From the IMG/VR virus record IMGVR_UViG_3300026522_000061: DNA of 39,858 bases; one strand, given 5' to 3'. This DNA is from a virus. Below the pieces are notes generated by a model. The model ran no database searches. It saw only the letters and a list, made by a program, of their open reading frames with translations, and was not told where the DNA came from. The first letter of the stretch is position 1. Each line of letters begins with the position of its first letter. A program made the position numbers and the translations under genes. Shown in pieces: positions 1-39,858 of this stretch.

Positions 1-127
1 GTAACGCGGTAGCTGCTGCCCGTAGCCTGCTGGATAGGTATAGTATAGCTGGCTTGTATCGTGTCGCTCTGCGTGCCATACGATACGGTGGCTACCATCT
101 TTATAACCGCGGGTGCATAGCCAGCCA
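1..127. repeat. Terminal direct repeat, copy A (identical to 39732-39858)
   Basis: Base-by-base identity read directly from the sequence. A 127-nt length is typical of an assembler k-mer overlap on a circular contig. Confidence 0.95.
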
Positions 128-3677: not shown

Positions 3678-6364
3678 TCGCCTATCTCCTTTAGTGTTAG
3701 TGTGGCACTGGCTTCTATAAGGTTGCGGCTAATGCCTTGCACAAAGAATTTCTTGCCCAGTGCAGGATGTATGTAATGGTCGAAAAGTCCCACGTTACCG
3801 ATGGCATCTATAAGGGCCTGTTCCATAATGACGCGCGGCAGGTGGTATTCCTGGTAGTAGCTATCCACGTACAGCTGTTCGGGCTTTGCCTGCGCCTGCT
3901 TTGCGTAGTCGTAGATGCTTAGCAGGCCATCGCCGGTAGCTACATTAAGCGGCGTGGAAAGCTTCACGCTGTTAGGTACGCCCAGCTGCTTGCACTCTGC
4001 CGATGTAAGCATGGTGGTTATCTTAAATTCCAGGTCGTCTTTTATGTTCCTAAATTCTTCCCTGGTATCGCTCATGTAGATAATGTCGTTATCGTCGCCG
4101 TCGTTTTGGATAAGGCCGTTATCGCTATATACCTTAACTTCAAACTCCTTTACCAGGATGTCGGAAACGTGGGCCAGCAGCGGTATGCTGTTGCTGTGCC
4201 ATTTCGTATGCCGGAAAAAGGTAGGATGCCTGCGCGTTATTTCGTCCCATATCGCATTAACAGGGCCTAATATCATAAACTTAACCTGGCCACTAACCTT
4301 ATCGGATTTGTGGATAGGTATAGCGATGCCCTCTGCGTCTATGCCCATCGTGTAGTCGATGTTATTTTGCAGGCCAAATTCGGTACCTATCAACTTGTCG
4401 CCTATTTTGGGGTTAAAGCCTATCGTAAAGCTCTGCTGGTAGTACTCATCTTCGCTGCCGCATTGTTCCAGGGTCTTATATTTGCGCCAGGTAAAATCGC
4501 TGGTCTGCCCATCGGTGCCTGTCTCTACCACGCATTTATCGCCTATTATAAGCATGCAGGAAAGCACAGCCACTTTGCTTATCGTGTCGGTGCTGTCGCC
4601 TATAGCACTGTACTTAAATTCGTACTTTTCGGGGCCTTTGCCGGTGTACGGCAGCAGCCCATCGTCGGTGTTATAGTCCCAGCTCGCTTCGTCGGTAGGC
4701 AGCGTAGCTTTCCAGTATTTACGTGTATAGTAGCGGCCATCGCCGTTATCGCGGCTGGGCACTGTCTTATGCCACCATCCAGGCACGTAAAAGCCGCCGT
4801 AGTTTTGTTGTATTGCGCCCCAGTCCTCTGTATCGTGCAGGGTTTTGTACGTGTCGGTCATAGCCATAACAGGGTTAAGTATCACTTTGCCCGATAGCAC
4901 GATATAGTTAGTGGTATCGTCGTCGGCAGGCGAAAACGTGCCGCCTGCTGCGTTGCCGGTATAGACGGCCATAGGGATGCTGGCCTTAATATCGGCATCC
5001 TGGGGGTAGTATTCGGTTTCTTTGTCGCTGCCATTGCCGTTTACCGATACAGCCAGGTAGTTAGTCATGTTTACTTTAGATACTGGGCTGTTATCGTCTT
5101 TTGCTGTGTTCATCTGTACGCTGCCGAAAGCGATAATGGCTGCGCCCAGGTTCTTAGCCATCCAGTTAGGTAGTGCCTGCTGGTTCTTACCCTGGCTACA
5201 GAAAAGCGTAATAAGTTCACCGCTGGGCGTAGGGAAACGCCAGACTACGTTATTCTTTACCTGTATATACCAGTCTGTAATCGTGCCAGCTCCATAGTTA
5301 GTGCTTTCGTCATGGCACATAGCCTTAAACGCGTTGTAGGCTGCCTTACCCTCGCCATCTGCGCTGTACTCTGTCATATACAGCTGCTTGTTACTGTAAG
5401 GCGATGTAAGCAAATCATAGTCCAGTGGGTTTTCTATGATGCTTTCTATTTCTTCCGTTTTGTCGGTTAGTTGCAGCTGGTTAAACACTTCGCCTACGCT
5501 TATCTGCGTATTCGTGTCGGCCACGTTATCGTTACCGATGGTAATAGTGTTCCTGGTAGTAGTCGCTATCCGCATGTTAGCGATATTACGCCAGGTAATC
5601 GTGCCGGTGCTTCTTACCGTTTCCCAGGAAAAGATGTAAAAGGTAAAGCCATCCTGGTAGATGTGCAAATTAAGGTAGCGCAGCAGCTCTGCCAGCACGT
5701 CGTTTTGCTGCCAGGTATCGTCTTGCTCATCGCCTAAAAATAGCAGCTCTGAAATGGCCAGCTGCCTAAATATGGTGTAGTGGTTTGTGTTGGCATTGTC
5801 GATGGCCTTACTGCCGTCGTAGAGGTAGCGCACAGTCTTACCGCCTACTATATCCAGGTCGGCAGTAACGCCATTAAGGATTTCGGCCAGGATGTCGTAA
5901 AAGCTGCGCTGTGTGGCATTATTCTTTACTTCGTCGTAGAATACGTCAAAGCTGCCGATATTGCGGTACAAAGAATACTGCAAAGCAGATAGCGCGTCGA
6001 TGCAGTTTATTTCTACTTCGTCCCACAGCTCGTTATATGGCTGGCTGTAGCTTTGTGGCTCGATAAAGCCTGCAAAGATGCAAACGCCATCCTGGTAGAT
6101 GTTCACTACGGCATCGCGCGCAGACGCGCCAAAGAAATCGGGCACATAGTCACGCGCCAGCAGCCGTATGGTAGCAGACTGGCACAGTAGATGGTCGAAA
6201 GTGTCGTTTACTTCGCTGGTAATCTCTACTGGGCTGTCGGCAGGAAATTGCAGCTGTAGGCTATCGGGGCTTATCTCGATTTCCTGGGTACGGTCGCCGC
6301 CGGTTACGATGTAAACCGTAATCGCTGCGCTATTCTGTGCTAAAAAGCTGCCATAGATATACAT
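3674..6364 (-). CDS. Large distal tail / baseplate protein (Dit-like position immediately after the tape measure)
   Basis: 896-aa ORF directly downstream of the tape measure gene. The call rests on synteny. Confidence 0.75.
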   Translation of the reverse strand: MYIYGSFLAQNSAAITVYIVTGGDRTQEIEISPDSLQLQFPADSPVEITSEVNDTFDHLLCQSATIRLLARDYVPDFFGASARDAVVNIYQDGVCIFAGFIEPQSYSQPYNELWDEVEINCIDALSALQYSLYRNIGSFDVFYDEVKNNATQRSFYDILAEILNGVTADLDIVGGKTVRYLYDGSKAIDNANTNHYTIFRQLAISELLFLGDEQDDTWQQNDVLAELLRYLNLHIYQDGFTFYIFSWETVRSTGTITWRNIANMRIATTTRNTITIGNDNVADTNTQISVGEVFNQLQLTDKTEEIESIIENPLDYDLLTSPYSNKQLYMTEYSADGEGKAAYNAFKAMCHDESTNYGAGTITDWYIQVKNNVVWRFPTPSGELITLFCSQGKNQQALPNWMAKNLGAAIIAFGSVQMNTAKDDNSPVSKVNMTNYLAVSVNGNGSDKETEYYPQDADIKASIPMAVYTGNAAGGTFSPADDDTTNYIVLSGKVILNPVMAMTDTYKTLHDTEDWGAIQQNYGGFYVPGWWHKTVPSRDNGDGRYYTRKYWKATLPTDEASWDYNTDDGLLPYTGKGPEKYEFKYSAIGDSTDTISKVAVLSCMLIIGDKCVVETGTDGQTSDFTWRKYKTLEQCGSEDEYYQQSFTIGFNPKIGDKLIGTEFGLQNNIDYTMGIDAEGIAIPIHKSDKVSGQVKFMILGPVNAIWDEITRRHPTFFRHTKWHSNSIPLLAHVSDILVKEFEVKVYSDNGLIQNDGDDNDIIYMSDTREEFRNIKDDLEFKITTMLTSAECKQLGVPNSVKLSTPLNVATGDGLLSIYDYAKQAQAKPEQLYVDSYYQEYHLPRVIMEQALIDAIGNVGLFDHYIHPALGKKFFVQGISRNLIEASATLTLKEIGE

Positions 6365-6369
6365 ACTGC

Positions 6370-8985
6370 CTAAACCTTTATATTTGTCCTACGTCCCGAT
6401 TTGCTGCTTACCCTGGTTTCGTTAGCCATAACGCCTACCAGCTTACGGCCCTCTATCTCAAAGCGCACGTTACCGCCTACGCCACCCTGGGGCTGTAGCA
6501 TACTGCGTAGCTTATCCAGTGGGGCTACCACTTCGGGGTTATTGCTTGCGCCTGCGTACTCTCCGATAAGGGCGTATGTGGGGCCGCTTACCACGCCGCC
6601 ATCGGCCAGCATCGGAATACCTGCCGCTGTTACTGCTGCCAGCATCGCGGTAGTAAATCCCATAGCGATACCAAAACCCGCAAACGGTATATATGCGTGT
6701 GCGGCCATATACTCGGCTGCCGCTAATTCTTTCCAGCTGGCCGCCTCCAGCTTGTTAGCGGTAATAATAGCCGCAGACGATGCCGCGTTAGTGGCCACCG
6801 TTGTTCCTCGTACTGTAGCCTCGGTAGTCTCTGCCGCAGCTTCTACGCCCTTAGTGGCCGCGTGCGCAGCACTGGCACCAGTAAGCAGGTTAATAATGCC
6901 TACTACCGTCTGTATGCCGTTGTATAGGCCTATAAATCCGTCGATAAGGCCTACTACTATCTGCCACGCGCTGCCGTTGCCCTTTAACGCGTCGGTTATA
7001 CCCTCCACGCTGCGGGCTATATTCTTTATACCACCCCATCCGTCTTGCAGCGATTTGCCTACAGATACGCTGGTTTTCTCGGCCTCCTTTCCTGCGTTTT
7101 TGATAGCGTCGGCCTTAGCGTTCCACGCGTCTATCTGCTTGTTAATGGCCGCGGCCTCGTCTATGGTCGCAGTCTGTAGCTGGTCAGTAAGTATGCTAAT
7201 GTTATCGTTAATATCCTTTAAGGTCTTAGCGTCCTCTTTCCACAGCGGGCCGCTATCTACAGCTTTGCCCGCGTTCTTGATAGCGTCGGCCTTAGCGTTC
7301 CACGCGTCTATCTGCTGGTTAATGGTCGCTGCTTCCTCTTTGCTGGCAGTTTGTAACTTCTCCTGCAATATGCTGATATTATCGCCTATCTCCTTTAAGG
7401 TGGTCGCGTCCTCTTTCCAAAGTGGGCTATTATCCTCCGCAGCTTTGCCCGCGTTCTCGATAGCGTCGGCCTTTTCCTGCCAGCCAGCTATCTGCTGGTT
7501 AATGGCCGCCGCTTCTTCTATGCTGGCCGTCTGTAGCTTCTTACGCAGTATATCTATATTATCGTTAATCGCCTTTAAGGTGGCCGCGTTTGCGTCGAAT
7601 TTTGGTACCTCCACATTTGGGGTAGTGGCCTTGCCTCCGGTTGGCTTAGGCTTGCCCGGCGGGTTCGCGTATTTCTTCTGTGTCTCGGCCAAATCAATTT
7701 TAGGCGCGGCTTTCGGCTTTGTTACCTTTACGGCTACATCTACTTTCTTGCCTCCCAGTCCCAGTATGTTTTTAAGCCACTCCCACGCCTCTTTGCACTT
7801 CTCTACCAGCCACTCGAAAGCCTTTGCCAATCCGTTCATAATGGCATTAGCCAGCGGCTTGATAGCCTCCCAAACGCTATCTACGATTTTGCGGAAACTC
7901 TCGCAGTTATTGTAGGCGGTAATTACCGCAGTAACCAGCAAACCGATAGCCGTAATGATTAAGCCGATAGGGTTAGCGGTCAGTATCATATTTAACACTA
8001 CCTGCGCTGCTTTCCACGCGTTTGTAGCGATAGTAACCACTTTCTGCGCAGCCGCTACAGCCAGCGTAGCCACCTTGTTTTTGATAGTGGCCGCTGTGGA
8101 TGCTATAAACGCCTTGGTGCTTGCGTACAGCGTAGTGGTCAGTGTCTTAATACCGGTTATCAATGTAGAAACGGCGGCTAACGCTTGGCTGGCCTGCGCT
8201 GCCATCGTGACAAACGGCAGGGCACCGTTTACCAGCCCGCCTATCTGTTCTTTCATATCGCCCAGCGTATTGACTAACTGCTGCTGCTTACCGCTGTCTG
8301 TGGCCGCTAATTCGGCGTTCATATCGCCGACATTGTTCTGTATCACTTGGGCCAGCATTGCCGCGCGTTCCTGCTCGGTACCGTACTTGATAACGTTAGC
8401 CTCAGCCTCGGTAAACGATATGCCCACGCGCTTTAGCGCATCTACTTGGCCCATCATCGCTTTACCCATCAAATTACCAACCTGCACCGCGTCGCCCGTG
8501 CTGGCGTTCAGTCCCTTTTGCTGTGCTAACAAATTGTTCATCGCAGGTATCAGCGTTTCTAAACTTGCCTTTTCATTCAGAAACGTTGCTATCTGCTGCG
8601 CCCCGGATAACTGCACCTCATCACCGATAACGCCTATTTTCTGCTGCGCGCTGGCCAGTTCCTTGATGCTCTGTATTTCCGCATCGGTCGCACCCATACG
8701 CTGCTGCATAACGGTGGCTAACTTCGTCTCTGCCACTTCCTGCACCGCGTATGCGTCGGCCAAATCTTTCATACCGCTTTGCAGCTGGCTAAAGCTACGC
8801 TGCGCCGCGTCTATGCCGGTAGCCAAAGCCGCGAAATTTATTACATTACCTTTCAGCTGCTGCGCCTCTGATAGCGTGGACGTAATAACCTGCTTTAGCC
8901 CGTCTGCGTCCTTGGCCAAATCCTTGAAACTCTTGCTATCGCCGTCCAGCTTGAAAGTAATGCTAATCGTACTTTTACCTGCCAT
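6370..8985 (-). CDS. Tail tape measure protein
   Basis: 871 aa, alpha-helical and Ala/Gln-rich, with hydrophobic segments and internal tandem repeats. It lies downstream of the G/T chaperone pair. Confidence 0.9.
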   Translation of the reverse strand: MAGKSTISITFKLDGDSKSFKDLAKDADGLKQVITSTLSEAQQLKGNVINFAALATGIDAAQRSFSQLQSGMKDLADAYAVQEVAETKLATVMQQRMGATDAEIQSIKELASAQQKIGVIGDEVQLSGAQQIATFLNEKASLETLIPAMNNLLAQQKGLNASTGDAVQVGNLMGKAMMGQVDALKRVGISFTEAEANVIKYGTEQERAAMLAQVIQNNVGDMNAELAATDSGKQQQLVNTLGDMKEQIGGLVNGALPFVTMAAQASQALAAVSTLITGIKTLTTTLYASTKAFIASTAATIKNKVATLAVAAAQKVVTIATNAWKAAQVVLNMILTANPIGLIITAIGLLVTAVITAYNNCESFRKIVDSVWEAIKPLANAIMNGLAKAFEWLVEKCKEAWEWLKNILGLGGKKVDVAVKVTKPKAAPKIDLAETQKKYANPPGKPKPTGGKATTPNVEVPKFDANAATLKAINDNIDILRKKLQTASIEEAAAINQQIAGWQEKADAIENAGKAAEDNSPLWKEDATTLKEIGDNISILQEKLQTASKEEAATINQQIDAWNAKADAIKNAGKAVDSGPLWKEDAKTLKDINDNISILTDQLQTATIDEAAAINKQIDAWNAKADAIKNAGKEAEKTSVSVGKSLQDGWGGIKNIARSVEGITDALKGNGSAWQIVVGLIDGFIGLYNGIQTVVGIINLLTGASAAHAATKGVEAAAETTEATVRGTTVATNAASSAAIITANKLEAASWKELAAAEYMAAHAYIPFAGFGIAMGFTTAMLAAVTAAGIPMLADGGVVSGPTYALIGEYAGASNNPEVVAPLDKLRSMLQPQGGVGGNVRFEIEGRKLVGVMANETRVSSKSGRRTNIKV
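7085..7597 (-). repeat. Three in-frame tandem repeats of about 177-180 nt (about 59-60 aa) inside the tape measure gene
   Basis: The anchor gatagcgtcggcc recurs at 7102, 7279 and 7459. The protein repeats read ...LK.I.DNISIL...LQTA..EEAA.INQQIDAWNAKADAIKNAGK... Confidence 0.85.
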
Positions 8986-14927: not shown

Positions 14928-14958
14928 CATCAGTTAGAACAATAAAACATTACTCAGT

Positions 14959-15351
14959 ATGAAAAAGTACATAACAAAAAAGGAAATCAAAGGCGCAAAG
15001 ATTAACGATTACGTTAGCGGACTTTTAGACGATATTAACGCGCCCGGCGATATAAACGGCAGGTATTTTTCTTGCTGGTGGTTTGACTGGCACCAAGAAA
15101 AGGAATATATAGACGCTATGAATGAAATTATTTGGGGCCTTTCTCTCAACTATGCTAAAGCAAACGGCGTTTGGTTCAATAATGGCACAGAAACGCAGCT
15201 TAGACTTAGCGAACTGGCAGAATACATCGCGGAGAAACTAAACGTATTTTCCTGCACAGTAATACACTGGCTAAAAGGTATGAAATACGCGCACTATGGT
15301 ATAGACGTTTGCGACGCTTGCGGATTAAATGCAATATACATCAAAAGATAA
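14959..15351 (+). CDS. Hypothetical protein (Trp/Cys-containing, 130 aa) in a plus-strand moron island
   Basis: ORF in a clearly lower-GC segment, on the opposite strand to the flanking structural genes, with its own promoter. Confidence 0.7.
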   Translation: MKKYITKKEIKGAKINDYVSGLLDDINAPGDINGRYFSCWWFDWHQEKEYIDAMNEIIWGLSLNYAKANGVWFNNGTETQLRLSELAEYIAEKLNVFSCTVIHWLKGMKYAHYGIDVCDACGLNAIYIKR

Positions 15352-23494: not shown

Positions 23495-24127
23495 TTAAAA
23501 TAATTTGGGTCGCAACCTCTCAGCCTCTACAAAATTTCTAAATCGCTGTTCCTCCATAGCGAAATAATCGCCGTCTATTTCGCACCCTACGAAAGAAAGC
23601 CCCATTTTGTATGCCGCTATTCTGCTGCTGCCACTTCCTAAATGCGTATCTAATATCTTATCACCGTCTTTGGCAAAAAGCCCGTAAATCCATTCGTATA
23701 GCTCCACGGGCTTTTGCGTAGGATGCCATTTCTTTTCCCTCGTAGTAGGGTTTTTGTCGAATTTCTTAGCGCCGATACTAAAAGAGGTATATGCCATTTC
23801 AAACTGTGAAAATGAAAGTTTGTCGCTAAACTTTTTATCCCATAACAGCCAGCATCTACTATCCCACGGCATACGACTGACAAAATAGTTTGCGCCCCAT
23901 ATAATTTGATTTTTTGATACCCTACGCAGCTCGTTAAAATACTCGGTGGGGGGGGGTGCTGCATCCCAGTAGGCTTTTTTGCGTCCGCTGTATGCCATAC
24001 CTTTTCGCCTGCCTATACTTTCGTTAATTTTAATTCCGTATGGTGGGTCGCAGACAGCTATATCAAAATACCCGTCCGGCACGTTCCGCATATACTCCAT
24101 ACAGTCTATATTATACGCCTCATTCAT
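23495..24127 (-). CDS. DNA methyltransferase (N6-adenine or N4-cytosine, beta-class motif order)
   Basis: DPPYG motif near the N-terminus and an AdoMet-binding DTHLGSGSS motif near the C-terminus. Confidence 0.85.
   Translation of the reverse strand: MNEAYNIDCMEYMRNVPDGYFDIAVCDPPYGIKINESIGRRKGMAYSGRKKAYWDAAPPPTEYFNELRRVSKNQIIWGANYFVSRMPWDSRCWLLWDKKFSDKLSFSQFEMAYTSFSIGAKKFDKNPTTREKKWHPTQKPVELYEWIYGLFAKDGDKILDTHLGSGSSRIAAYKMGLSFVGCEIDGDYFAMEEQRFRNFVEAERLRPKLF
23948..23956 (-). repeat. Homopolymer G9 (C9 on the coding strand) inside the methyltransferase ORF, encoding PPP
   Basis: Counted directly: ggt ggggggggg tgc. Confidence 0.9.
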
Positions 24128-24147
24128 TTTTAATTCTGATTTAATGC

Positions 24148-24165
24148 GCCCGGCTTGCGCCGGGC
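24148..24165 (-). promoter_or_regulatory. Hairpin 3' of VR2: GCCCGGC, TTGC loop, GCCGGGC
   Basis: Perfect 7-bp stem, 31 nt beyond the VR2 boundary. It is positionally homologous to the hairpin 3' of VR1. Confidence 0.7.
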
Positions 24166-24186: not shown

Positions 24187-24858
24187 TTAACAGTGTAAAA
24201 ATGCTGAAACGGGGCGAACTCTGCCCGTGTCCGGCGCCTTAGGGCTGCCGTACGCGTAGCCGTAGTTGAGGTCCAAAAACCACGCGTAGGTCGCGCTGTA
24301 CTCGGTAGAACTCCAGTACCAGCCTGCTAACTCTTGGCCACCTACGAAACGCATAGCGGCGTTAATGGCCTTGCGGTTGAGGCAGATTAAATACAGCTCG
24401 GCCAGTGTCGGGATATACTCGCCATCTTTCAGCTGGATAGCAGGATTAAGCCCCACGGCTTGCAGGTGCTCGGTGTTCTTCTTACCTTGCCAGTCCTGCA
24501 CAGCGTCCATATAGCTGTCGATATAGTGGCCTTTGCCATCGTCCTTTTTGCTGATCAGCGTAATTTCGTCCTCGCTTACGTCGTGCAGGGATATGGCTAC
24601 GCTATGGCTACCTTGGACGATACCGATATAGGCAGTATCGTTTGTGGTTTCGGTATCTTCCCCATCATAGCGCACTGCGTTGCCTTTGGTGTCGATTAGG
24701 TAAACGCCATCTGCCAGTCTGTCGCTGGCTGGTTCCTGCTTCTTAGCCTCATCACCACCGCGCACGAAATCCCAGCATTTCTGTGCGGTCTCTACGTTGT
24801 ACCCGGTTTCTTTTAGCAGGGTCATACGCACCTGCATATTGTTGCTAATAGCTTCCAT
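24187..24858 (-). CDS. DGR target protein 2 (DUF1566 / C-type-lectin-fold-like C-terminal domain carrying VR2)
   Basis: The C-terminus reads WYWSSTEYSATYAWFLDLNYGYAYGSPKAPDTGRVRPVSAFLHC. The 3' 108 nt match the TR except at template adenines. Confidence 0.9.
   Translation of the reverse strand: MEAISNNMQVRMTLLKETGYNVETAQKCWDFVRGGDEAKKQEPASDRLADGVYLIDTKGNAVRYDGEDTETTNDTAYIGIVQGSHSVAISLHDVSEDEITLISKKDDGKGHYIDSYMDAVQDWQGKKNTEHLQAVGLNPAIQLKDGEYIPTLAELYLICLNRKAINAAMRFVGGQELAGWYWSSTEYSATYAWFLDLNYGYAYGSPKAPDTGRVRPVSAFLHC
24197..24304 (-). repeat. DGR variable repeat VR2
   Basis: Aligned to TR 36306-36413. Across the hand-checked core (TR 36311-36413) there are 15 mismatches, all at TR plus-strand T, which is coding-strand A. 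Confidence 0.9.
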
Positions 24859-25193: not shown

Positions 25194-27140
25194 CTAATCT
25201 TTTAGGTAGTATGGTGTAGTGTAGCCTGCGCCTTTCAGCGGCAGGTCTCGGCACCAGCTAATCTGTTTGCTAAATATGGCTTCCACGTCTGCCAGCGTTT
25301 GCCCTGCTTCCGCTTCTACCACTATCTCATCGTGGATATGGAAAACGATATTTAACCCGCTTTCCTCAGCTCTGATAATCACGTTACCCAGTACGTCACG
25401 GGCTATCGCCTGCACTACGTTCTCGGTCAGCTTACCGCCATACGTGCGTATCTTTTCCCACTTTTTGGTCGTTTGGTTCAGTCCCTCGTACTCGATTATT
25501 TCGTGGTCGCCTCTCCATCCGTCCCCGTACTCTATGCCTATAGTGGCGCGCGGGTAACAAATGGTTCTGCCGGACGGCAGGGTAATAAGCAGCATACCCC
25601 ATCTGTAGGAAACTTCTATACCTCGGTTAATCGTCACGCTTTCGCCTGTCTTGATAGCCTTTACCGCCGCTTGTTCTATGATAGTCCAAAAGCGTACTAT
25701 CTTCGGGTTAGCGTCGCGCCACTTTCGTATAATTTTCTTTTCCTCGTACTCGGTCAGCCCCATACGGCTGCCCCCCATATTCTCCAGCGCGCCTACGCCG
25801 CCGCCGTAGCCCAGTGCCAGCACCGCTATTTTGCCCTTGGCGCGCAGTTCTGCGTTTTCGCCGTGCTTCTCTACCTTGCAGTGGAACATCTGCCCGGCTG
25901 TAGCGCAGTAAATATCGCCGTCTTGCCGGAATACATCCAGCACCCAGTTTTCACCTGCCAGCCACGCGATAACGCGCGCCTCGATAGCTGAGAAATCGCA
26001 GACGTGGAAAACGCAGCCGGGCTTGGCGATAAATGCGGTACGTATCAGTTCCGAAAGTACGTGCGTAGGGTTTTCGTAGTTCAGCTCGAAATCCTCCAAA
26101 TCGCCCGCCTTGACTAACTGCCGCGCGTAGTCCAAATCGCGCAGGTGGTTTTGTGGCAGGTTCTGCACCTGCACCAGCCTGCCAGCCCATCGCCCGGTAC
26201 GCGCCGCGCCGCAGAACTGCAAAAGTCCGTGTATTCGGCCATCATTGCAGACGCATTGCAGCATAGCTGCGTATTTCTTGTTTGAGGTCTTGCCCATTTC
26301 GCGGCGTATGGCTAAAACGCGCTGCGCTTTCGGCCAGTATCTAAACTGCTTGTCCATATCGTCCAAATCCTTTTTGTTGAGGCTGGCGATACTGAAACCA
26401 GTAGTTTTGTGAAGGTACTCTTTTATCTGCGCCGGGCTGTTGGGGTTTTCCATCCCGGTTAGCTGCTGCGCCTCGGCAAACAGCTGCGCTTTATACTCAT
26501 CATCGAAACGGGCGGCGTTCTCGGCCAGCTGGCGGTCTAACATAACGCCACGGTCGTTAATACGCTGGTCTATGGTGTACAGCACTTCGTCAAATGCGGC
26601 AGGCTCCAGCCTGCGCACCTTGGCTAATATCTGCTGCTCTACCTCCACGTCCCGGATATTGTACGCCTTGAATGTTTCCCACTTGTCGGGTGCATCTGCT
26701 GGCAGGTGTCGTTTGCCTCGGTTCGGTACGCTGAAATATCGTATCAGTGCTGCGCCCTCTTTCATCTTACCGTCCGAAAGCCTAAGCACCTCACCACACT
26801 GCCCCAGCGATAGCGGCAAACCCATACGGGCGGCTCGTACCATCGTGCATTTCCACTGGCTTGCATCCATCAGCGGCCACCCGTAATACTTGGATATGCA
26901 AACGCGCTCAAATGCTGCGTTAAACGCGGTCTTGATAACGGCAGGATCTCGCAGGGCTTCGTATATCTCCGCTGGCAGCTGCTCGCCGCTTGCAAAGTCG
27001 CAGCACACTACCGGGCCGCCATCCACACTATACGCAAACAGCAGTATAGTAAAGTCCTTGGCTTCCACGTAGCGATATACGCCGCATCTTGACAGGTCGT
27101 GGCTGCTGTAGGTTTCAATATCTATCCCTATCTCTCGCAT
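25194..27140 (-). CDS. Family A DNA polymerase with an N-terminal 3'-5' exonuclease domain
   Basis: 648 aa. N-terminal IDIETYS, motif B-like KGKIAVLALGYGGG and motif C HDEIVVE. Confidence 0.9.
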   Translation of the reverse strand: MREIGIDIETYSSHDLSRCGVYRYVEAKDFTILLFAYSVDGGPVVCCDFASGEQLPAEIYEALRDPAVIKTAFNAAFERVCISKYYGWPLMDASQWKCTMVRAARMGLPLSLGQCGEVLRLSDGKMKEGAALIRYFSVPNRGKRHLPADAPDKWETFKAYNIRDVEVEQQILAKVRRLEPAAFDEVLYTIDQRINDRGVMLDRQLAENAARFDDEYKAQLFAEAQQLTGMENPNSPAQIKEYLHKTTGFSIASLNKKDLDDMDKQFRYWPKAQRVLAIRREMGKTSNKKYAAMLQCVCNDGRIHGLLQFCGAARTGRWAGRLVQVQNLPQNHLRDLDYARQLVKAGDLEDFELNYENPTHVLSELIRTAFIAKPGCVFHVCDFSAIEARVIAWLAGENWVLDVFRQDGDIYCATAGQMFHCKVEKHGENAELRAKGKIAVLALGYGGGVGALENMGGSRMGLTEYEEKKIIRKWRDANPKIVRFWTIIEQAAVKAIKTGESVTINRGIEVSYRWGMLLITLPSGRTICYPRATIGIEYGDGWRGDHEIIEYEGLNQTTKKWEKIRTYGGKLTENVVQAIARDVLGNVIIRAEESGLNIVFHIHDEIVVEAEAGQTLADVEAIFSKQISWCRDLPLKGAGYTTPYYLKD

Positions 27141-31654: not shown

Positions 31655-32190
31655 AAAAGTTAATGGTAACTGCCGCTTTGTCGGCATTATGCACGTGCGC
31701 ATACGCGCAGACGGATAGTATAGGTATATACAAAGTAGATAACGCAGGTATCAGCCGCATAGAGGCACTGCGCCCGGCGCAGACTAAAATAAGCGGTGGT
31801 CTAAAAAGCAAAGCAAAGGTAGTGTTTAACGGTGCTGCCAGCCAAAACCGCTTTGCCGGTTCTGCCACGTTCCGGCTATACTTCGGCACGCCATCGCCCT
31901 ACGATGCCGCTAAATACTTTATGTTTACCCCGTCCTACAGCGTGAAAGATTTTAGCGTGGGCCGGTTTGAGGTTAAAAAAGAAAACCGCTACCTCACTAC
32001 GGTAACGGTTTCTATCGTTGGCTCCAAAATCGGGGTTAGTGTCGCCAAAGGTGTAAACGTGGAATATAGGCAGCTGCGCGATAACGTGTACGAAATCACC
32101 GTTACCGGGCCAGCTGGCGAATACTGCATTATGCCCGTGCTAAATGGCACTGCCGGTTATGCTGGTGTGTTTGATTTTGCACTGGAATAA
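31651..32190 (+). CDS. Secreted or lipoprotein-like protein of unknown function (lysogeny-module moron)
   Basis: Signal peptide MKKLMVTAALSALCTCAYAQ. Its start makes an ATGA overlap with the repressor stop. Confidence 0.7.
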   Translation: MKKLMVTAALSALCTCAYAQTDSIGIYKVDNAGISRIEALRPAQTKISGGLKSKAKVVFNGAASQNRFAGSATFRLYFGTPSPYDAAKYFMFTPSYSVKDFSVGRFEVKKENRYLTTVTVSIVGSKIGVSVAKGVNVEYRQLRDNVYEITVTGPAGEYCIMPVLNGTAGYAGVFDFALE

Positions 32191-32486
32191 ACAGCAAATT
32201 TTCAGCAAATAGTTTTATATATGTTATAACTCGCTGATTTTCAAGCATTATAAAAATACCTATTTATATAGTTAGGCATATAGCCGCTGGTAGATAAAAC
32301 ACAAAGCGCAGTTTGCCGTAACTATTTGATACCCACAGATAACAAAACCGCTTTCAGCGAATTTTAAGCACAGCAAATTTGCCGATAAATATAATAAAGT
32401 GGTCGCTGGTGGCGTTTAATATGGTAGGTATCGGTATATTTGGGCACATTTTTAAGCAACAAATCAGCAAAACGAAAGCAAATTAT
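32191..32486. promoter_or_regulatory. Candidate attP region with CAGCAAAT-type repeats
   Basis: CAGCAAAT occurs at 32192, 32203 and 32371, with variants at 32465 and 32476. This AT-rich intergenic region lies immediately upstream of int. Confidence 0.4.
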
Positions 32487-33753: not shown

Positions 33754-34194
33754 TCAGAATTTCCGTTTTAAGTATAAAACCAAATGCCACATTATTGCGG
33801 CTATGCAGCACAAACCGCCTGCCCACATCAGCCCCGTTTCGTACCATCGGCGGGGCTTTTCTATATATACGGGCTTTTCCACGCGGATGCTGTCGCGGCG
33901 TTCCCTATACACCGTATCGCGCATGGTTCTGTACTTGTACAGCGTATCAGTGTGTACCTTGTACTGGTAGCGAACGCGCTCCACGTACTTAGTTACCGTA
34001 TCGCCCTTTTCCCGCACGTAGATGCTATCGCGGATATAGATACTATCGCGCTGCATCAGCCGGGCAAATATGCTATCCAGCTGGCGGGTGCTTACTCTCG
34101 TACTGTCGCGGCTTTCGTCATACGTTGAGGCGTAACGGGTGCTGGCGCAGCTGGCCAGCAGGATAGCCGCTAAAATCAAAAATAGATGCTTCAT
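33754..34194 (-). CDS. Lipoprotein with a C-terminal TM helix (u-spanin-like lysis protein)
   Basis: The internal start MKHLFLILAAILLASC provides a lipobox. The C-terminus LMWAGGLCCIAAIMWHLVLYLKRKF is hydrophobic. The ATG lies 1 nt after the amidase stop, whereas the longer track ORF would overlap the amidase by 161 nt. Confidence 0.7.
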   Translation of the reverse strand: MKHLFLILAAILLASCASTRYASTYDESRDSTRVSTRQLDSIFARLMQRDSIYIRDSIYVREKGDTVTKYVERVRYQYKVHTDTLYKYRTMRDTVYRERRDSIRVEKPVYIEKPRRWYETGLMWAGGLCCIAAIMWHLVLYLKRKF

Positions 34195-34195
34195 A

Positions 34196-34597
34196 CTACA
34201 AATCGGTTTTAACGTCAAAACTTGGGCACGCTTTCGCGGCAAATTCTCTGTGGCCGTGTACGGTTGCACCGGGGTACTGCTTTTGCAGGTCAGCCACCAA
34301 CCTGCGCAGGGCTTCGCGCTGCTGAGGCGTGCGCGTGTCCTTTGGTGTCTTGCCATCAGCAGCGCAGCCGCCTATATAGCAAACGCCTATGCTGTTGGCG
34401 TTATGGCCGGTGCAGTGCGCACCTATCTGCGCCACTGGCCTGCCAGTGTGTACGCTTCCGTCCCGGTAAATAACGTAATGGTAGCCGATACACTGCCAGC
34501 CACGCGATTTGTGCCAGCGGTCTATATCGCCTACGGTGTAGTCGCGTCCCTCCGCGGTCGCGCTACAGTGTACTATAATCTCGTTTATCTTTCTCAT
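34196..34597 (-). CDS. N-acetylmuramoyl-L-alanine amidase endolysin (Amidase_2/PGRP, T7-lysozyme-like)
   Basis: HCSAT, GYHYVI, HNANSIGVCYIGG and HREFAAKACPSF zinc-ligand pattern. Confidence 0.9.
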   Translation of the reverse strand: MRKINEIIVHCSATAEGRDYTVGDIDRWHKSRGWQCIGYHYVIYRDGSVHTGRPVAQIGAHCTGHNANSIGVCYIGGCAADGKTPKDTRTPQQREALRRLVADLQKQYPGATVHGHREFAAKACPSFDVKTDL

Positions 34598-34598
34598 C

Positions 34599-35018
34599 TT
34601 AATATCCGTTTTGGGGTTCTCGCTGGCCGCACTTCTTACGTATGCAGCGGTACGTCTGTAACTCCAGCTCTACTTTGCCTTTCTCTTTGGTAAGCTCCAG
34701 CACCTCGGCGTTTAGCTTCCGCACCAGTTCCGTTTGCTGCGCAAATCGTTCTTCCTTTTCTTGCAGCTGTGTTTGCAGGAACTCCACCGTTTGGCGAAGT
34801 ACGTTAAACTCTACGCTGTCTGCCTCTGCTTCTGCTTTGCGGCTGTTCGGCTTTCGGTTGATTAGGTACTTAATTGCCTCCCATCCACCCAGCGCGGTTA
34901 GCACGGCTGCAAAGGATGCCGCGATAATCTGTACTATTTCTGCGTTCATTCTTTCGCATATAACTCTATTACTATCCCGTTTTCTTTCTGCTCCACGATA
35001 ATAACCCAGTGCTTGCAT
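34599..35018 (-). CDS. Membrane-anchored coiled-coil lysis-cassette protein (holin or i-spanin-like); probable true start at 34949
   Basis: From MNAEIV there is one TM helix (IVQIIAASFAAVLTALGGWEAI) followed by a long coiled coil. It lies directly upstream of the amidase. Confidence 0.65.
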   Translation of the reverse strand: MQALGYYRGAERKRDSNRVICERMNAEIVQIIAASFAAVLTALGGWEAIKYLINRKPNSRKAEAEADSVEFNVLRQTVEFLQTQLQEKEERFAQQTELVRKLNAEVLELTKEKGKVELELQTYRCIRKKCGQREPQNGY

Positions 35019-35084: not shown

Positions 35085-36272
35085 TCAGTAGTCGCCATCT
35101 CTTATACGCTGTAGGGTTCTTGTTCTTAACCTGTATTTCTTCTTTACGGCCACTACGTCGTAGTGTCCTTTAATGTACACCCACTTAAATACCCGGCTGT
35201 CCATCCGTTGCAAAACCTTGCGCCGCGTGTTATACTCATTGCAGTGGCGAAAGCATCCCAAATAGCTGTTAATGCTATCCACTGCGTGCAGAACTTCGGG
35301 CACAGTCTCTGCCCGGTTCAGTCTGCGCACGGCCATTATAGCGTTTGTTATCGTATGGTTTGCGGTATATACGCGGTCTTTCTTTACAACACTGCCAGTA
35401 AACTGCACGCCCCTGCTGTAGTGCTGCAAATAGAACTTGTGCGGATGCAGCGTTAGCCCGTAAAGCTGTAGCAGGGTGCGGATATACGGCACTGCTGCCA
35501 GCAGGCGCGCTTTGTCCTTATCCACTATGTAGAAATCATCCACATACCTGCCGACATACTGAAAGCCCAAAGACTTGATTAAATACCAGTCCAGCACGTT
35601 TAGCAGGAAATTGGCGAAAAGCTGGCTAAATAGGTTGCCTATGGCTACGCCCAAACCCTCGCCGTTTGTAAATAGGGATTTGTTGGGCGGCAGATAGTCC
35701 CAGTAGCTTGCAGGGCTGTGGCGTTCACAGTTCTTTTCGGGTTCGTGCAGTACCACTGTGCGGCAAAGGAAACGCAGCGTATCTTTGTCTGCCTCGTTGT
35801 GGTAGTTCTCCACTACAAAAGCGTCCACCATATCGGCCAGCATCTTTTTGTTTATGCTCATAAAGAAACCCTGCAAATCCAGTTTCATTATATAGCAGTC
35901 CTGCGTATAGTTCACGCTGCACTGGCGCACGTCCTCGCGCAGCATATTGATGCCGTACAGCTGCCCTTTGCCTTTTCTACAGTTGAAAGTGCGCGGGCTA
36001 AATATCTGCTCAAACAGCGGCTCCAGTCGTAGGGCTATCCAGTGGTGTACTATTCTATCCTCAAAAGTAGCCGCGAATACTTCCCGATACCTCGGACGCG
36101 TAACGACAAAGCACATAGATTTACCGGGGCGGTAGGTACGTGCGTTAATGCGGTCTCGCAGGGCTATTAACTTGCCCTCGTAGTCCATTTCGTACACTAT
36201 CGCGCTGGCTGTTTTCCGCTTCCTTTTACGGCAGTCGTAATACGCTTCTAATAATCCCTCGGTCGTAATCAT
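35085..36272 (-). CDS. DGR reverse transcriptase
   Basis: 395 aa with an RYVDDF catalytic motif and the DGR-specific IGNLFSQ ([LIV]GxxxSQ) motif. It lies immediately 3' of the TR. Confidence 0.92.
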   Translation of the reverse strand: MITTEGLLEAYYDCRKRKRKTASAIVYEMDYEGKLIALRDRINARTYRPGKSMCFVVTRPRYREVFAATFEDRIVHHWIALRLEPLFEQIFSPRTFNCRKGKGQLYGINMLREDVRQCSVNYTQDCYIMKLDLQGFFMSINKKMLADMVDAFVVENYHNEADKDTLRFLCRTVVLHEPEKNCERHSPASYWDYLPPNKSLFTNGEGLGVAIGNLFSQLFANFLLNVLDWYLIKSLGFQYVGRYVDDFYIVDKDKARLLAAVPYIRTLLQLYGLTLHPHKFYLQHYSRGVQFTGSVVKKDRVYTANHTITNAIMAVRRLNRAETVPEVLHAVDSINSYLGCFRHCNEYNTRRKVLQRMDSRVFKWVYIKGHYDVVAVKKKYRLRTRTLQRIRDGDY

Positions 36273-36305
36273 ATCGTATAGCTATCGCGCGTTTTGGTTA
36301 TCTGC

Positions 36306-36413
36306 AAAAGTGCTGAAACGGGGCGAACTCTGTTCGTGTTCGTCGCCTTAGTGTTGTTGTTCGCGTTGCCGTTGTTGAGGTTCAAATTCCACGCGTTGGT
36401 CGCGCTGTACTCG
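36306..36413 (-). repeat. DGR template repeat (TR), adenine-rich on the coding strand with 11 AAY codons
   Basis: Pairs with VR1 and VR2. It reads ...EYSATNAWNLNLNNGNANNNTKATNTNRVRPVSA. Weak homology with an indel continues to about 36420. Confidence 0.9.
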
Positions 36414-36541
36414 CAACTCCGTGCCGCCCTTGCCTTGGGCTGGATGCCCTCAGCCATAACTATAAATGATAGTGCGCGGCCCATTTTTACACAGATAACT
36501 ATTTGCACGCTTGATTAGTCGTAACCTTTCAATTCCGGCAG

Positions 36542-36925
36542 TTAATCAGGTCTGCTGTCTAACTTGATTAACGAATTTTTCCACGCGGTCGCCTGCTTGC
36601 CTATAGCGTCCATCAGTTCGATAATATCCGCGTGGCTGCTTCTGCCTAAAATCCATTTCCGTTCGCCCGCTATGCGCATCAGCGTCTTCAAAACCTCAAA
36701 CTCCGACTGGAAATTAACCAAATGCTGTATGCGCGTCGCGCGGTCTCTATTTATGTATGCTGCCGTTATCTCGGATATTAGGTTTACCGAAATTTCGTGC
36801 ATCTTGTTACCTATGGTAAACTTGTATTCACGCGGAAAGTTTGGCGTAACGTCTAACACTTTGTCGATTAGCTTACGGCAGTCTAAATAGATTTGCTGGT
36901 TAGATACCAGTTTGGATTTGTTCAT
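36542..36925 (-). CDS. avd: DGR accessory variability determinant (four-helix-bundle protein)
   Basis: 127-aa basic helical protein between the target gene and the TR, the canonical Avd position. It contains an FPREYKF..GNKM motif. Confidence 0.8.
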   Translation of the reverse strand: MNKSKLVSNQQIYLDCRKLIDKVLDVTPNFPREYKFTIGNKMHEISVNLISEITAAYINRDRATRIQHLVNFQSEFEVLKTLMRIAGERKWILGRSSHADIIELMDAIGKQATAWKNSLIKLDSRPD

Positions 36926-36954
36926 AACGGGGTATTTGGAAATTTCTTTAGTTT

Positions 36955-36974
36955 GGTACGGCTTTCGCCGTACC
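36955..36974 (-). promoter_or_regulatory. Hairpin 3' of VR1: GGTACGGC, TTTC loop, GCCGTACC
   Basis: Perfect 8-bp stem, 35 nt beyond the VR1 boundary. The flanking sequence cTTAAAG..TAAAG..TAACTATTAAC is shared with the VR2 locus. Confidence 0.7.
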
Positions 36975-37002
36975 TTAAAGGATAAAGTTTAACTATTAAC
37001 CA

Positions 37003-37764
37003 CTAATATAAAAATGCTGAAACGGGGCGAACTCTGAACGTGGACGTCGCCTTAGGGTAGGTGCTCGCGGAGCCGTAGCCGAGGGGCAAATACCACGCGT
37101 AGGTCGCGCTGAACTCGGTAGAACTCCAGTACCACGTTTCTGCCAGCTGTGTTGCTCCCTCTATCATCGATAATGCGTAATTGATTTTACGCATATTCGC
37201 GTAGATGCAAAACAGCTCACCCAGCGACGGTAGCCACCATCGGCCTGCGGTCAGTCCTTCGCCGTTGGCATTAACGCGGCTGTAGGCTGCGCAGAAACCC
37301 GGTGCGTAGGATGCCGTATTACATTCCGCGTGCGTAATCTGCGCTGCGGTGTTGGCCTTTCCTGCCCAGTCGTTCATCACCGTAATGCGGTCTGAGGTGG
37401 TAACGCCGCCACCGCTAACGGCTGCGCTGCTCCACGTTAATGCGGTCTCGGTTGGCGATACTACCAGTATCTTGCCGCCCTCCACAACTACCACGCCCTC
37501 GGCTATCTCGCCGCTGTTTTGGTAGCTCGTCCACTTGTCGGGTTTCACCATAAGCGGGTAATTATCGCTGTTTCTGTGAAACATAATAAATACTCCGTCG
37601 TTGATGCTATTAAGGTTGATACCAGCCAGCAAAGCCTCTTTTAAGTTTGCCAGCGTTACTTTAGTCACGTTACCGCTGCCGTCGGTTAGCGGTATGTACT
37701 GCGACGCGTTCACGGTGCTAACCGTCGTTACGTCTTTAAGTGTCTTTGTTTTCTTCGTTGCCAT
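37003..37764 (-). CDS. DGR target protein 1 (tail-fibre-associated, DUF1566 / C-type-lectin-fold-like C-terminus carrying VR1)
   Basis: The C-terminus reads WYWSSTEFSATYAWYLPLGYGSASTYPKATSTFRVRPVSAFLY. Located directly downstream of the tail-fibre genes. Confidence 0.9.
   Translation of the reverse strand: MATKKTKTLKDVTTVSTVNASQYIPLTDGSGNVTKVTLANLKEALLAGINLNSINDGVFIMFHRNSDNYPLMVKPDKWTSYQNSGEIAEGVVVVEGGKILVVSPTETALTWSSAAVSGGGVTTSDRITVMNDWAGKANTAAQITHAECNTASYAPGFCAAYSRVNANGEGLTAGRWWLPSLGELFCIYANMRKINYALSMIEGATQLAETWYWSSTEFSATYAWYLPLGYGSASTYPKATSTFRVRPVSAFLY
37010..37117 (-). repeat. DGR variable repeat VR1
   Basis: Aligned to TR 36306-36413. Across the hand-checked core (TR 36311-36413) there are 18 mismatches, all at TR coding-strand adenines. 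Confidence 0.9.
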
Positions 37765-37792
37765 ATCTTAAACTTTAGATAATAATATATTA

Positions 37793-39172
37793 TTATTCGC
37801 CCGTATATAGGCCCTCTATAGCGTACCACGCGCCGTTAATGCTCTTAAATTTACAGACGCAATTAGGACACATATATACAGTTGTGCCCCCGTAGTCTAT
37901 GTATTTGGCTTGGTAATTTTCCACTACCGCGCCATAAGAGCTATCCCCTTCTATTGCATACGAGTTAGCTTTAACGTATAGGCTGTCGCTGCCGTTACTT
38001 TCGACAAAAGTCATTTTGTCAGGGTTCCATCCGCTATTAAGTAGCTTAGTAAAAATCTGTATCTCTAATCCATCGTAAAGGCCCGCTTTAGGTAGTGTCA
38101 CATATCGGTGATTAGTCGGTTCGTCCACCAAAAAACTGCAACACGGCTCGACTTGTGGATTTATTATGTACTCTCTATTTGTTGCTGTAGTAATTGTTTT
38201 AGTCGGGCTGTAGTAAAGCTGCGCTTTTACGATGCCCTCCAGCGTGCTGTTACCTTTTACAGTAATGTTGTTAAACGTGCCGCTATTGCATATTACGTTA
38301 CCGTCTTTAGCTCTGAACACTACGTTACCGTTAGCGTCTTTCATATCTATGGCTTCCACGCCCAAATTTTTAACCAGCGCGTAGGTAGCCAGCAGGATTT
38401 TAGTAGCTACCAGCTCGATTTTGTCGCCCAGCTGCCAATAGCCGTTATTTATGGCTGTAGTGCTTCCGGGGTAATTGCTGGCCGTCTTGGTGTGGCTCTT
38501 TACACAGCTGTAGTAGTTATCACCATATATAACCACGTCCTGCCATTTCTCGCCCGCGCCCCCAGCTTGGAAAGCGTAGCCCGTGGCGCAGTCACTCCAC
38601 GCCTGCGGGCCGCGCAGTACCGCGCCCCGCTCTCCCTTTTCGCCGGTGTCGCCCTTCGTTCCCACCATCTCGGAGGCCGCGGGTATCCACGCCGTAGCGG
38701 CGGCGTTAGCGCCCATGGTCACCACGGCCCATTTGACGTAAGTGCCCGAGGCGTAGCTTGACGCCCCGCTCGTCTCATGGAAGAACGTGAATTGCAGGAG
38801 CTGTGCGGCGCTGAGCCCTGACTTGGCCTTGTACGTCCACTGATAGCTCTCTATGACCTCCGTCTTGCTCTCCAGCGTCGCTACCATCTGCGTACCGCTG
38901 TCCTGGAATACCTTGATAACCGTGTCCGCACTGTCCACCTTGTAGCAGACTGTCAGCGTACAGAGCGTGCCGTCAGCGGGCTTGCTGCCGTCCCACGCGT
39001 ATTGCCCTATAAGGTAGGCCGAGGACGAGAGCTTCTTGTTCGCGCCTTTCAGGAGATTGGGCTGATAGTTGTCTCCCTTTTCTCCCTTGGCACCAGCGGC
39101 ACCCGCCTCGCCCGTTGCTCCCTTTTCGCCCTTGCGGATAAACTTAACTACTTGTGTCCTTGATACGCCCAT
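37793..39172 (-). CDS. Tail fibre protein with collagen-like G-X-Y stretches
   Basis: 459 aa containing KGEKGATGEAGAAGAKGEKGD and GTKGDTGEKGERG. Confidence 0.8.
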   Translation of the reverse strand: MGVSRTQVVKFIRKGEKGATGEAGAAGAKGEKGDNYQPNLLKGANKKLSSSAYLIGQYAWDGSKPADGTLCTLTVCYKVDSADTVIKVFQDSGTQMVATLESKTEVIESYQWTYKAKSGLSAAQLLQFTFFHETSGASSYASGTYVKWAVVTMGANAAATAWIPAASEMVGTKGDTGEKGERGAVLRGPQAWSDCATGYAFQAGGAGEKWQDVVIYGDNYYSCVKSHTKTASNYPGSTTAINNGYWQLGDKIELVATKILLATYALVKNLGVEAIDMKDANGNVVFRAKDGNVICNSGTFNNITVKGNSTLEGIVKAQLYYSPTKTITTATNREYIINPQVEPCCSFLVDEPTNHRYVTLPKAGLYDGLEIQIFTKLLNSGWNPDKMTFVESNGSDSLYVKANSYAIEGDSSYGAVVENYQAKYIDYGGTTVYMCPNCVCKFKSINGAWYAIEGLYTGE

Positions 39173-39175
39173 AGC

Positions 39176-39858
39176 CTACAGTACGCTGGTAATGGTTACT
39201 GATACGTCGCCGCCCGCCTGCACACAGTGCGCACGGGTAACGGTTTGGCTGGTTTTCGGTGTGGTTCTGTCGCTGTTGAGGTAAACGCCTGCCGCATCTT
39301 TCAGCACGAAATAAAACTGCGTGTCTAACGCCTTGGTGCTGGTTCCGCGCGTCACCACTACCGGGGTGTACGTTACTTGGCCGTTGCCCGTGGTGTCCTC
39401 GGTTATCGCCTCATCTTCGGGCGACGGGTGCGGGTCTATATCGTAGGGGTCGCTGGTGTCCATCACGCTCTGTATATCGCTGCCTATCTCGGCACCGGCA
39501 CGGTAAACGTGTACGCGGTACTCGCCATAGGTGTTAATATCATCGGCCCTAACCGTCAGCGTCTGCGCGGTAGCCCCCGTAATGGTTTCCCAGCCGGTCG
39601 CGCCCATCTTCTCCCATACGTAGGTTAAATCCTTGGTCAGCGCGTTACCGCTTTGGTAGGCCATCGCTTTCAGTATGCAGCTGCCGTCCTTGGTGGTAAT
39701 AACAAAGTTCTTGGTATCGCCTGCCGCGATTGTAACGCGGTAGCTGCTGCCCGTAGCCTGCTGGATAGGTATAGTATAGCTGGCTTGTATCGTGTCGCTC
39801 TGCGTGCCATACGATACGGTGGCTACCATCTTTATAACCGCGGGTGCATAGCCAGCCA
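39176..39858 (-). CDS. 3' part of the wrapped Ig-like tail-associated protein gene (joins 1-488)
   Basis: The track ORF 39176-39829 begins at an internal Met. The frame stays open to the window edge and through the repeat into 128-488. Confidence 0.75.
   Translation of the reverse strand, partial: AGYAPAVIKMVATVSYGTQSDTIQASYTIPIQQATGSSYRVTIAAGDTKNFVITTKDGSCILKAMAYQSGNALTKDLTYVWEKMGATGWETITGATAQTLTVRADDINTYGEYRVHVYRAGAEIGSDIQSVMDTSDPYDIDPHPSPEDEAITEDTTGNGQVTYTPVVVTRGTSTKALDTQFYFVLKDAAGVYLNSDRTTPKTSQTVTRAHCVQAGGDVSVTITSVL
39732..39858. repeat. Terminal direct repeat, copy B (identical to 1-127)
   Basis: Same as copy A. Confidence 0.95.

Follow-up and report, generated by a model that had tools for sequence, protein, structure and literature searches.

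We analyzed a stretch of viral DNA of 39,858 nt (IMG/VR record IMGVR_UViG_3300026522_000061; "the window" hereafter means this whole stretch) and conclude with high confidence that it carries a complete, apparently functional diversity-generating retroelement (DGR) that is orthologous to the DGR of the Bacteroides phages Bacuni F1, F2, and F4. The element combines a reverse transcriptase (RT) with the DGR motif, a bAvd protein, adenine-specific differences between a template repeat (TR) and its variable repeats (VRs), a VR at the 3' end of the target gene, in-frame AAY codons, a hairpin, and VR polymorphism next to a conserved TR. An earlier note, made from the letters of the window, had proposed a DGR on the minus strand in the order target gene, Avd-like gene, TR, and RT. 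The open reading frames (ORFs) and the repeat are found exactly where it placed them, and every defining component of a DGR is present and passes. A second target gene lies elsewhere in the window. The parts of the element are as follows; IMH stands for initiation of mutagenic homing, and IMH* for its counterpart in the TR.

37003-37764, minus strand: proximal DGR target, 253 aa, with a DUF1566/Lcl_C C-terminal domain (ORF; Pfam PF07603)
37010-37117, minus strand: proximal VR, a repeat of the TR that encodes the last ~35 residues of the target
37010-37031, minus strand: IMH-like 3' segment of the proximal VR, 22 nt, TTCGCCCCGTTTCAGCATTTTT, with no adenine variation and with T where the TR has C
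36955-36974, minus strand: proximal hairpin/cruciform, GGTACGGC-GAAA-GCCGTACC, 8-bp stem, 35 nt downstream of the proximal VR (DNA fold)
36542-36925, minus strand: accessory variability determinant (Avd), 127 aa (Pfam PF22296, PHROG 3206)
36306-36413, minus strand: TR, 108 nt, with 35 adenines and 11 AAY codons in the target frame (repeat search and base-by-base comparison)
35085-36272, minus strand: DGR RT, 395 aa, with IGNLFSQ (residues 211-217) and YVDD (residues 243-246) (Pfam RVT_1, PHROG 1423)
24187-24858, minus strand: distal DGR target, a DUF1566 paralogue of 223 aa (ORF; PHROG 4245; homologues carry PF07603)
24197-24304, minus strand: distal VR, which differs from the TR at 15 A sites and in the same single C/T position
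24148-24165, minus strand: distal hairpin, GCCCGGC-GCAA-GCCGGGC, 7-bp stem, downstream of the distal VR (DNA fold)

An independent search recovers 36306-36413 and 37010-37117 as a direct repeat of 108 nt with 82% identity and a spacing of 704. Within 36311-36413 the TR and the proximal VR differ at 18 positions, all of them coding-strand adenines of the TR, and the chance that 18 of 18 mismatches fall on A (35 A in 108 nt) is ~1.6e-9. The earlier note had counted these 18 mismatches and had added that there were no non-adenine differences. The count stands for the range that it aligned, but the addition fails over the full 108-nt repeat, where a single non-adenine difference, C in the TR (36310) and T in the VR (37014), lies outside that range. 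The proximal VR stops 7 nt short of the end of the target ORF, the stop codon counted. The peptides encoded by the TR and the VR are NAWNLNLNNGNANNNTKATNTN and YAWYLPLGYGSASTYPKATSTF, respectively, with the 11 AAY codons in frame; the peptides, the codon count, and the figure of 15^11 possible peptides that had been given for these codons are correct (8.65e12). With every A-containing codon counted, the theoretical ceiling is ~9e18 peptides. A 79-aa ORF with a GTG start (36269-36508, minus strand) also spans the TR, and its end overlaps the start codon of the RT gene (ATGA). Its counterpart in F1 is annotated as a hypothetical DUF1566 protein, and the ORF is probably an artefact that arises because the TR duplicates the 3' end of the target gene.

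The 3' ends of the repeats have a character of their own. The last 22 nt of both VRs (TTCGCCCCGTTTCAGCATTTTT) are constant at their adenines, columns 97-118 of our VR alignment (alignment A1) are invariant among eight VRs, and repeat homology stops directly after this segment. The same difference near the 3' end, C in the TR and T in the VR, recurs in the relatives whose aligned repeat reaches it (loci L007, L008, L010, L011, L015, and L016). Because it is kept wherever the aligned repeat extends that far, we regard it as an IMH*/IMH marker and not as noise. Non-adenine mismatches had been named as a finding that would speak against a DGR, and the sole one is thus a conserved 3' marker, with which the DGR reading holds. 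An IMH/IMH* pair would be expected to look like this, and the VR 3' end is a candidate IMH.

A scan of the whole window with the TR, in which mismatches were allowed at A, detects the distal VR, where 15 of the 16 mismatches to the TR fall on TR adenines. This repeat closes the distal target gene, which belongs to the replication module, 12 kb from the proximal target, with the PolA gene (25194-27140) on one side and a methyltransferase gene (23495-24127) on the other. Both targets belong to PHROG 4245, a family of unknown function in that collection.

Comparison with relatives shows that variation is concentrated at the same sites. The TR is 100% identical in six genomes (the window, F1, F2, F4, and the IMG/VR loci L005 and L007), and among eight VRs from four genomes, 28 of the 35 A columns vary versus 3 of the 73 non-A columns (Fisher test, 4e-16). 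VRs that are monomorphic across related genomes would have spoken against the element, and the VRs are hypervariable next to an invariant TR. The proximal VR differs from the TR at 18 A sites in the window versus 13 in F1, F2, and F4. Genomes that are 93-99.8% identical differ mainly in their VRs, which implies very recent DGR activity in the lineage. In each of the more distant relatives that could be analyzed (RT identity 34-78%), a TR/VR pair of its own shows A-biased substitutions; that of L017 (RT identity 50%) is only partly in register.

The pattern extends to the population scale. The proximal target has 3602 homologues in a metagenome protein collection, and among its 120 closest homologues the 11 positions of highest entropy are residues 222, 225, 227, 229, 230, 232, 234, 235, 236, 241, and 243 (2.5-3.1 bits, 8-15 residue types), which are the 11 AAY codons. 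The same holds for the distal target, where the 11 residues of highest entropy among the 120 closest homologues (191, 194, 196, 198, 199, 201, 203, 204, 205, 210, and 212) are again the AAY codons. The VR of L005 (2623-2733) has a 3-nt insertion relative to its own TR, and 17 of the 120 homologues of the proximal target have an extra residue between positions 235 and 236 (column 243 of alignment A2); from these two observations we conclude that codon-length changes arise inside the VR.

Both proteins of the core unit are recognized by family models. Avd matches Pfam PF22296 (bAvd) at 2.8e-35 (121.5 bits versus a cut-off of 40) and PHROG 3206 ("Avd protein of DGR") at 3.7e-17, and it scores 39.9 bits with the NCBIfam model DivGenRetAVD, under the cut-off of 80. 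The RT matches Pfam RVT_1 and, at 3.3e-80, PHROG 1423. Its IGNLFSQ and YVDD motifs, both called in the earlier note, are present; by sequence they are the motif of the DGR clade (domain 4) and the YxDD box, and in the literature DGR RTs are marked by the signature (I/V/L)GxxxSQ (PMC3521204). Two more distant relatives (L010 and L011) have IGNLFAQ in place of IGNLFSQ and still show A-specific TR/VR differences, and AQ is listed as a rare variant of the motif (PMC3521204). An affinity of the RT to retron or group II enzymes would also have counted against a DGR. In comparison with solved structures, the best relative, 8ub7 (328 aa; E value 8.7e-23), is far ahead of group II (2.3e-7) and retron (7e-4) RTs, and in the alignment IGNLFSQ pairs with IGSLTSQ and YVDD with YMDD. 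The entry is named only "Reverse transcriptase"; from its length and these two motifs, we take 8ub7 to be the bRT of Bordetella phage BPP-1, an unconfirmed assignment.

The RT genes of Bacuni_F1 (L002, 34024-35154) and F4 (L003, 18437-19567) lack 19 aa, LFEQIFSPRTFNCRKGKGQ, that correspond to window positions 35961-36017 (RT codons 86-104). The window and F2 both have these residues, which align to residues 97-115 of 8ub7, in the fingers region, as do all six IMG/VR relatives whose RT aligns in full. A 5-nt direct repeat, GCTGT, lies on either side of the 57-bp gap. The difference was published as an insertion in phage F2. Because LFEQIFSPRTFNCRKGKGQ is kept in the relatives and a direct repeat flanks the gap, we interpret it as a slippage deletion in F1 and F4 instead. 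F1 and F4 differ in their VRs despite this deletion; perhaps it is tolerated, an intact RT has acted in trans, or recombination has played a part.

A hairpin or cruciform downstream of the VR is required for retrohoming in BPP-1 (Guo et al., 2011; PMC3240598). The same paper gives the consensus for phage DGRs, a GC-rich stem of 7-10 bp and a GRNA loop of 4 nt at a distance of 4-34 bp from the VR. The proximal hairpin of the window fits the GC-rich stem and GRNA loop of this consensus. Its stem shows paired substitutions in relatives: the outer pair is A..T in L008 and L009, and T-A is replaced by C-G in L010 and L011. In a six-sequence alignment, which is a small sample, changes on both sides occur at three of the eight pairs, and 97.9% of the cells are paired. 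The downstream hairpin is thus conserved with compensatory changes. We also considered the hairpin as a canonical terminator and rejected this, since a promoter and terminator scan of the DGR region gives counts no higher than in shuffled sequence and no T-run follows the VR hairpin. Rfam has no family at its gathering threshold anywhere in the window.

The proximal target passes Pfam PF07603 (Lcl_C) with 38.7 bits versus a cut-off of 34.9, and a profile search matches it to solved chains of the DUF1566 type, 8q4e (7e-6) and 4eps (4e-3). Single-sequence searches of the PDB with the target and with Avd give no match, and no NCBIfam model passes for the targets. The entry 4eps is a Bacteroides ovatus protein deposited as "hypothetical protein"; Hedzet et al. 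also matched it with Phyre2 and called it a fimbrial tip protein (PMC8143477). Targets with DUF1566 domains make up the CLec2 class, to which about 14% of catalogued DGRs belong (PMC5758913).

The proximal target is the final gene of the tail/fibre block and lies upstream of a lysis cassette (membrane protein, amidase, and lipoprotein). Pfam and PHROG annotation thus bears out the earlier placement of the element between tail and lysis genes. The neighbouring genes are as follows.

39176-39829: PHROG "tail protein"
37793-39172: collagen-like protein
34599-35018: membrane protein of the lysis cassette
34196-34597: amidase of the lysis cassette
about 33754-34194, minus strand: lipoprotein ORF whose product has a lipobox (LLASC) and a transmembrane segment at the C terminus; it immediately follows the amidase gene

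By homology to BPP-1, the element would work as follows. The avd-TR-RT unit would be transcribed and supply the template, and RT and Avd would copy the TR RNA into cDNA with misincorporation opposite template adenines. The cDNA would then replace the VR sequence upstream of the IMH at both targets, that is, the adjacent DUF1566/lectin-like gene and its paralogue 12 kb away. The IMH-like 3' end of the VR (T, versus C in the TR) would determine the direction of transfer, with help from the downstream GC-rich hairpin with its four-base loop. The 11 AAY codons would thereby be randomized without stop codons, so that a ligand-binding face varies on a constant scaffold.

Several points weigh against this account of an active element with a lectin-like target on the virion. 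For the RT, NCBIfam has no passing model, and its top model is a group II one at 79.6 bits versus a cut-off of 300. The GC-only tract of the IMH-like segment is short, 7 nt (CGCCCCG), versus a GC-only stretch of 14 bp in the IMH of BPP-1. The loop of the distal hairpin, GCAA, departs from the GRNA consensus at its second base. AlphaFold2 models are unusable both for the full target with 120 close homologues (predicted local distance difference test score, pLDDT, 50.9) and for the last 153 aa with an alignment in which both paralogue families were combined (pLDDT 43.3), because the alignments are too shallow (at least 79% identity within each family). The proposal of a C-type-lectin fold therefore draws on the Pfam match and on weak-to-moderate profile matches, and a C-type-lectin-like fold of the target C-terminus with its variable residues exposed is an unconfirmed prediction. 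Likewise, the location of the target protein on the virion is putative, and so is ongoing activity in the window genome itself.

If the cassette were a relic, the DGR would have been active in ancestors and would now be inactive here, and the VR differences would be inherited. The 57-bp deletion in the RT fingers of F1 and F4 shows that inactivating lesions do arise in this lineage. However, the RT of the window is full length with all motifs and agrees with the family consensus and with F2, and Avd, the TR, the IMH-like ends, and both hairpins are intact. Together with the very recent activity implied by close genomes that differ mostly in their VRs, this makes a relic very unlikely. The three copies of the 108-nt segment in the genome could in principle have arisen by a common duplication of paralogues, or by gene conversion among genes with lectin domains, with no retroelement involved. 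Yet the mismatches are confined to the adenines of one copy, this copy is invariant across genomes, and it sits beside an RT and an Avd gene. Gene conversion would not yield an adenine asymmetry of one copy, and the duplication explanation is therefore effectively refuted; we reject it on the strict asymmetry and the adenine specificity (P about 1e-9 to 1e-16).

An apparently functional DGR leaves room for different roles of what it diversifies. We favor a proximal target that acts as a tail-tip receptor-binding protein, whose diversification would change host range and switch tropism. Its gene closes the tail/fibre block right after the collagen-like protein and the PHROG "tail protein", and the published phages F1 and F4, which have different hosts, are distinguished by almost nothing but this VR. 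In the published comparison, 18 of the 24 single-nucleotide polymorphisms (SNPs) between F1 and F4 lie in the proximal VR and the two phages infect different B. uniformis strains (PMC8143477), which is a correlative observation. An active DGR could instead diversify a protein that serves adherence to mucus or glycans, or one with an intracellular role. The unassigned function of PHROG 4245 would fit this, as would the Bacteroides protein 4eps among the solved relatives, which is not a phage fibre, and the paralogous second target among replication genes, which has no obvious tail-attachment region or signal sequence. In view of the position of the gene and the F1/F4 comparison, we hold such a role of the proximal target to be unlikely, although deserving of consideration. 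The distal target might itself be an early, intracellular, non-structural binding protein, such as an anti-defence or host-takeover factor, and not a virion component. We consider this quite improbable; if true, it would mean that a DGR evolves a non-structural phage function. The data on the distal target concern natural hypervariability at the AAY positions and have no bearing on its site of action.

The DGR of the window is already known, because an orthologous element with an identical TR was published for the Bacuni phages in 2021. Hedzet et al. (Microorganisms 9:892; PMC8143477) described the target-avd-TR-RT order, one adjacent and one distant VR, DUF1566 targets, and adenine substitutions, confirmed the element with MyDGR, and linked it to tropism. 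In our comparison with the GenBank records of these phages (MT635598, MT806186/7, and MT806185), F1, F2, and F4 are like the window in gene order, the 108-nt TR, the two VRs, the DUF1566 targets, and both hairpins. The window differs in its VR alleles, and its 395-aa RT is full length as in F2, whereas those of F1 and F4 are short by 19 aa. In addition, the neighbouring collagen-like tail gene and several modules (3468-6496, 37778-39125, and others) are replaced in the window.

The likeness to other known systems is more general. The prototype, BPP-1 (mtd-avd-TR-brt), has the same gene order and also has a tail-associated target with the VR at its 3' end, adenine-specific mutagenesis, Avd and an RT with the SQ motif, and a GC-rich hairpin with a GAAA loop after the VR. 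Unlike the Mtd target of BPP-1 (CLec1), the target of the window belongs to the DUF1566/CLec2 class. Moreover, the window has two targets versus one in BPP-1, a hairpin 35 nt from the VR instead of immediately adjacent to it, a TR-to-RT spacer of only 33 nt, and, within the repeat, just one base that sets the putative IMH apart from IMH*. Legionella pneumophila LdtA and other CLec2/DUF1566 DGRs (category "d"; Wu et al., 2018; PMC5758913) resemble the window in having a VR in a DUF1566-type domain that ends in ...RVRxV. LdtA is cellular, on an integrative conjugative element, and has a lipoprotein target, whereas the element in the window is phage borne and its targets have no signal peptide. 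The DGR of the Bacteroides dorei Hankyphage (Benler et al., 2018, cited in PMC8143477) is likewise encoded by a Bacteroides phage of the human gut; since Hankyphage is absent among the megablast matches in the phage collection, the two are not close relatives at the DNA level.

The window is thus a further genome of the Bacuni genus, in which a textbook DGR was recognized from raw sequence with correct coordinates, and it adds little new biology. The additions to the published description are the population-scale evidence that diversification of both targets coincides exactly with the 11 AAY codons, the compensatory changes in a conserved hairpin downstream, the slippage deletion in the RT genes of F1 and F4, and the integration of Bacuni-like prophages in Bacteroidales.

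Membership in the Bacuni genus of Bacteroides siphophages is assigned from genome-wide comparison. The two ends of the window (1-127 and 39732-39858) form an exact direct repeat of 127 bp, which shows the assembly to be circular and complete, with 39,731 bp; the overlap of 127 nt probably stems from the k-mer size of the assembler. It is collinear with Bacuni_F1 after circular permutation, and 34,319 of its 39,858 nt align to Bacuni_F1 with a mean identity of 92.9% (~86% of the genome). Because the identity is below 95%, the window probably represents a separate species within the genus. The DNA of the DGR cassette is 93.7-93.9% identical to F1, F2, and F4, and this identity of about 94% to B. 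uniformis phages supports a Bacteroides host; the earlier note had proposed a Bacteroidota one.

Six segments of the window have no blastn match to Bacuni_F1 (3468-6496, 14954-15349, 23495-24129, 31659-32193, 37778-38252, and 38657-39125). They cover some of the distal tail genes, and also the larger part of the collagen-like gene that immediately precedes the proximal target. This collagen-like gene encodes 459 aa in the window and 358 aa in F1. From these unmatched segments, mosaic exchange appears to affect the host-recognition genes beside the DGR.

An integrase gene is present in the window, and a temperate lifestyle is plausible for this phage. The published Bacuni phages yielded no lysogens. 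A relative with the same tail-DGR-lysis-integrase order lies inside a bacterial contig (L012, 14720-20762, on an ENA scaffold of 112 kb), where its integrase gene directly adjoins genes for a sigma-54 response regulator, a histidine kinase, and dehydrogenases, and two contigs of Bacteroidales metagenome-assembled genomes (L014 and L015, 184-190 kb) also hold relatives. Because these relatives sit within bacterial contigs, Bacuni-like prophages occur integrated in Bacteroidales.

Beyond the DGR, the lipobox ORF of the lysis cassette gave no match in Pfam or PHROG, and by sequence it is predicted to have the architecture of a unimolecular spanin. Its orthologue in F1 is labelled "Arm DNA-binding domain protein", a label that looks wrong.

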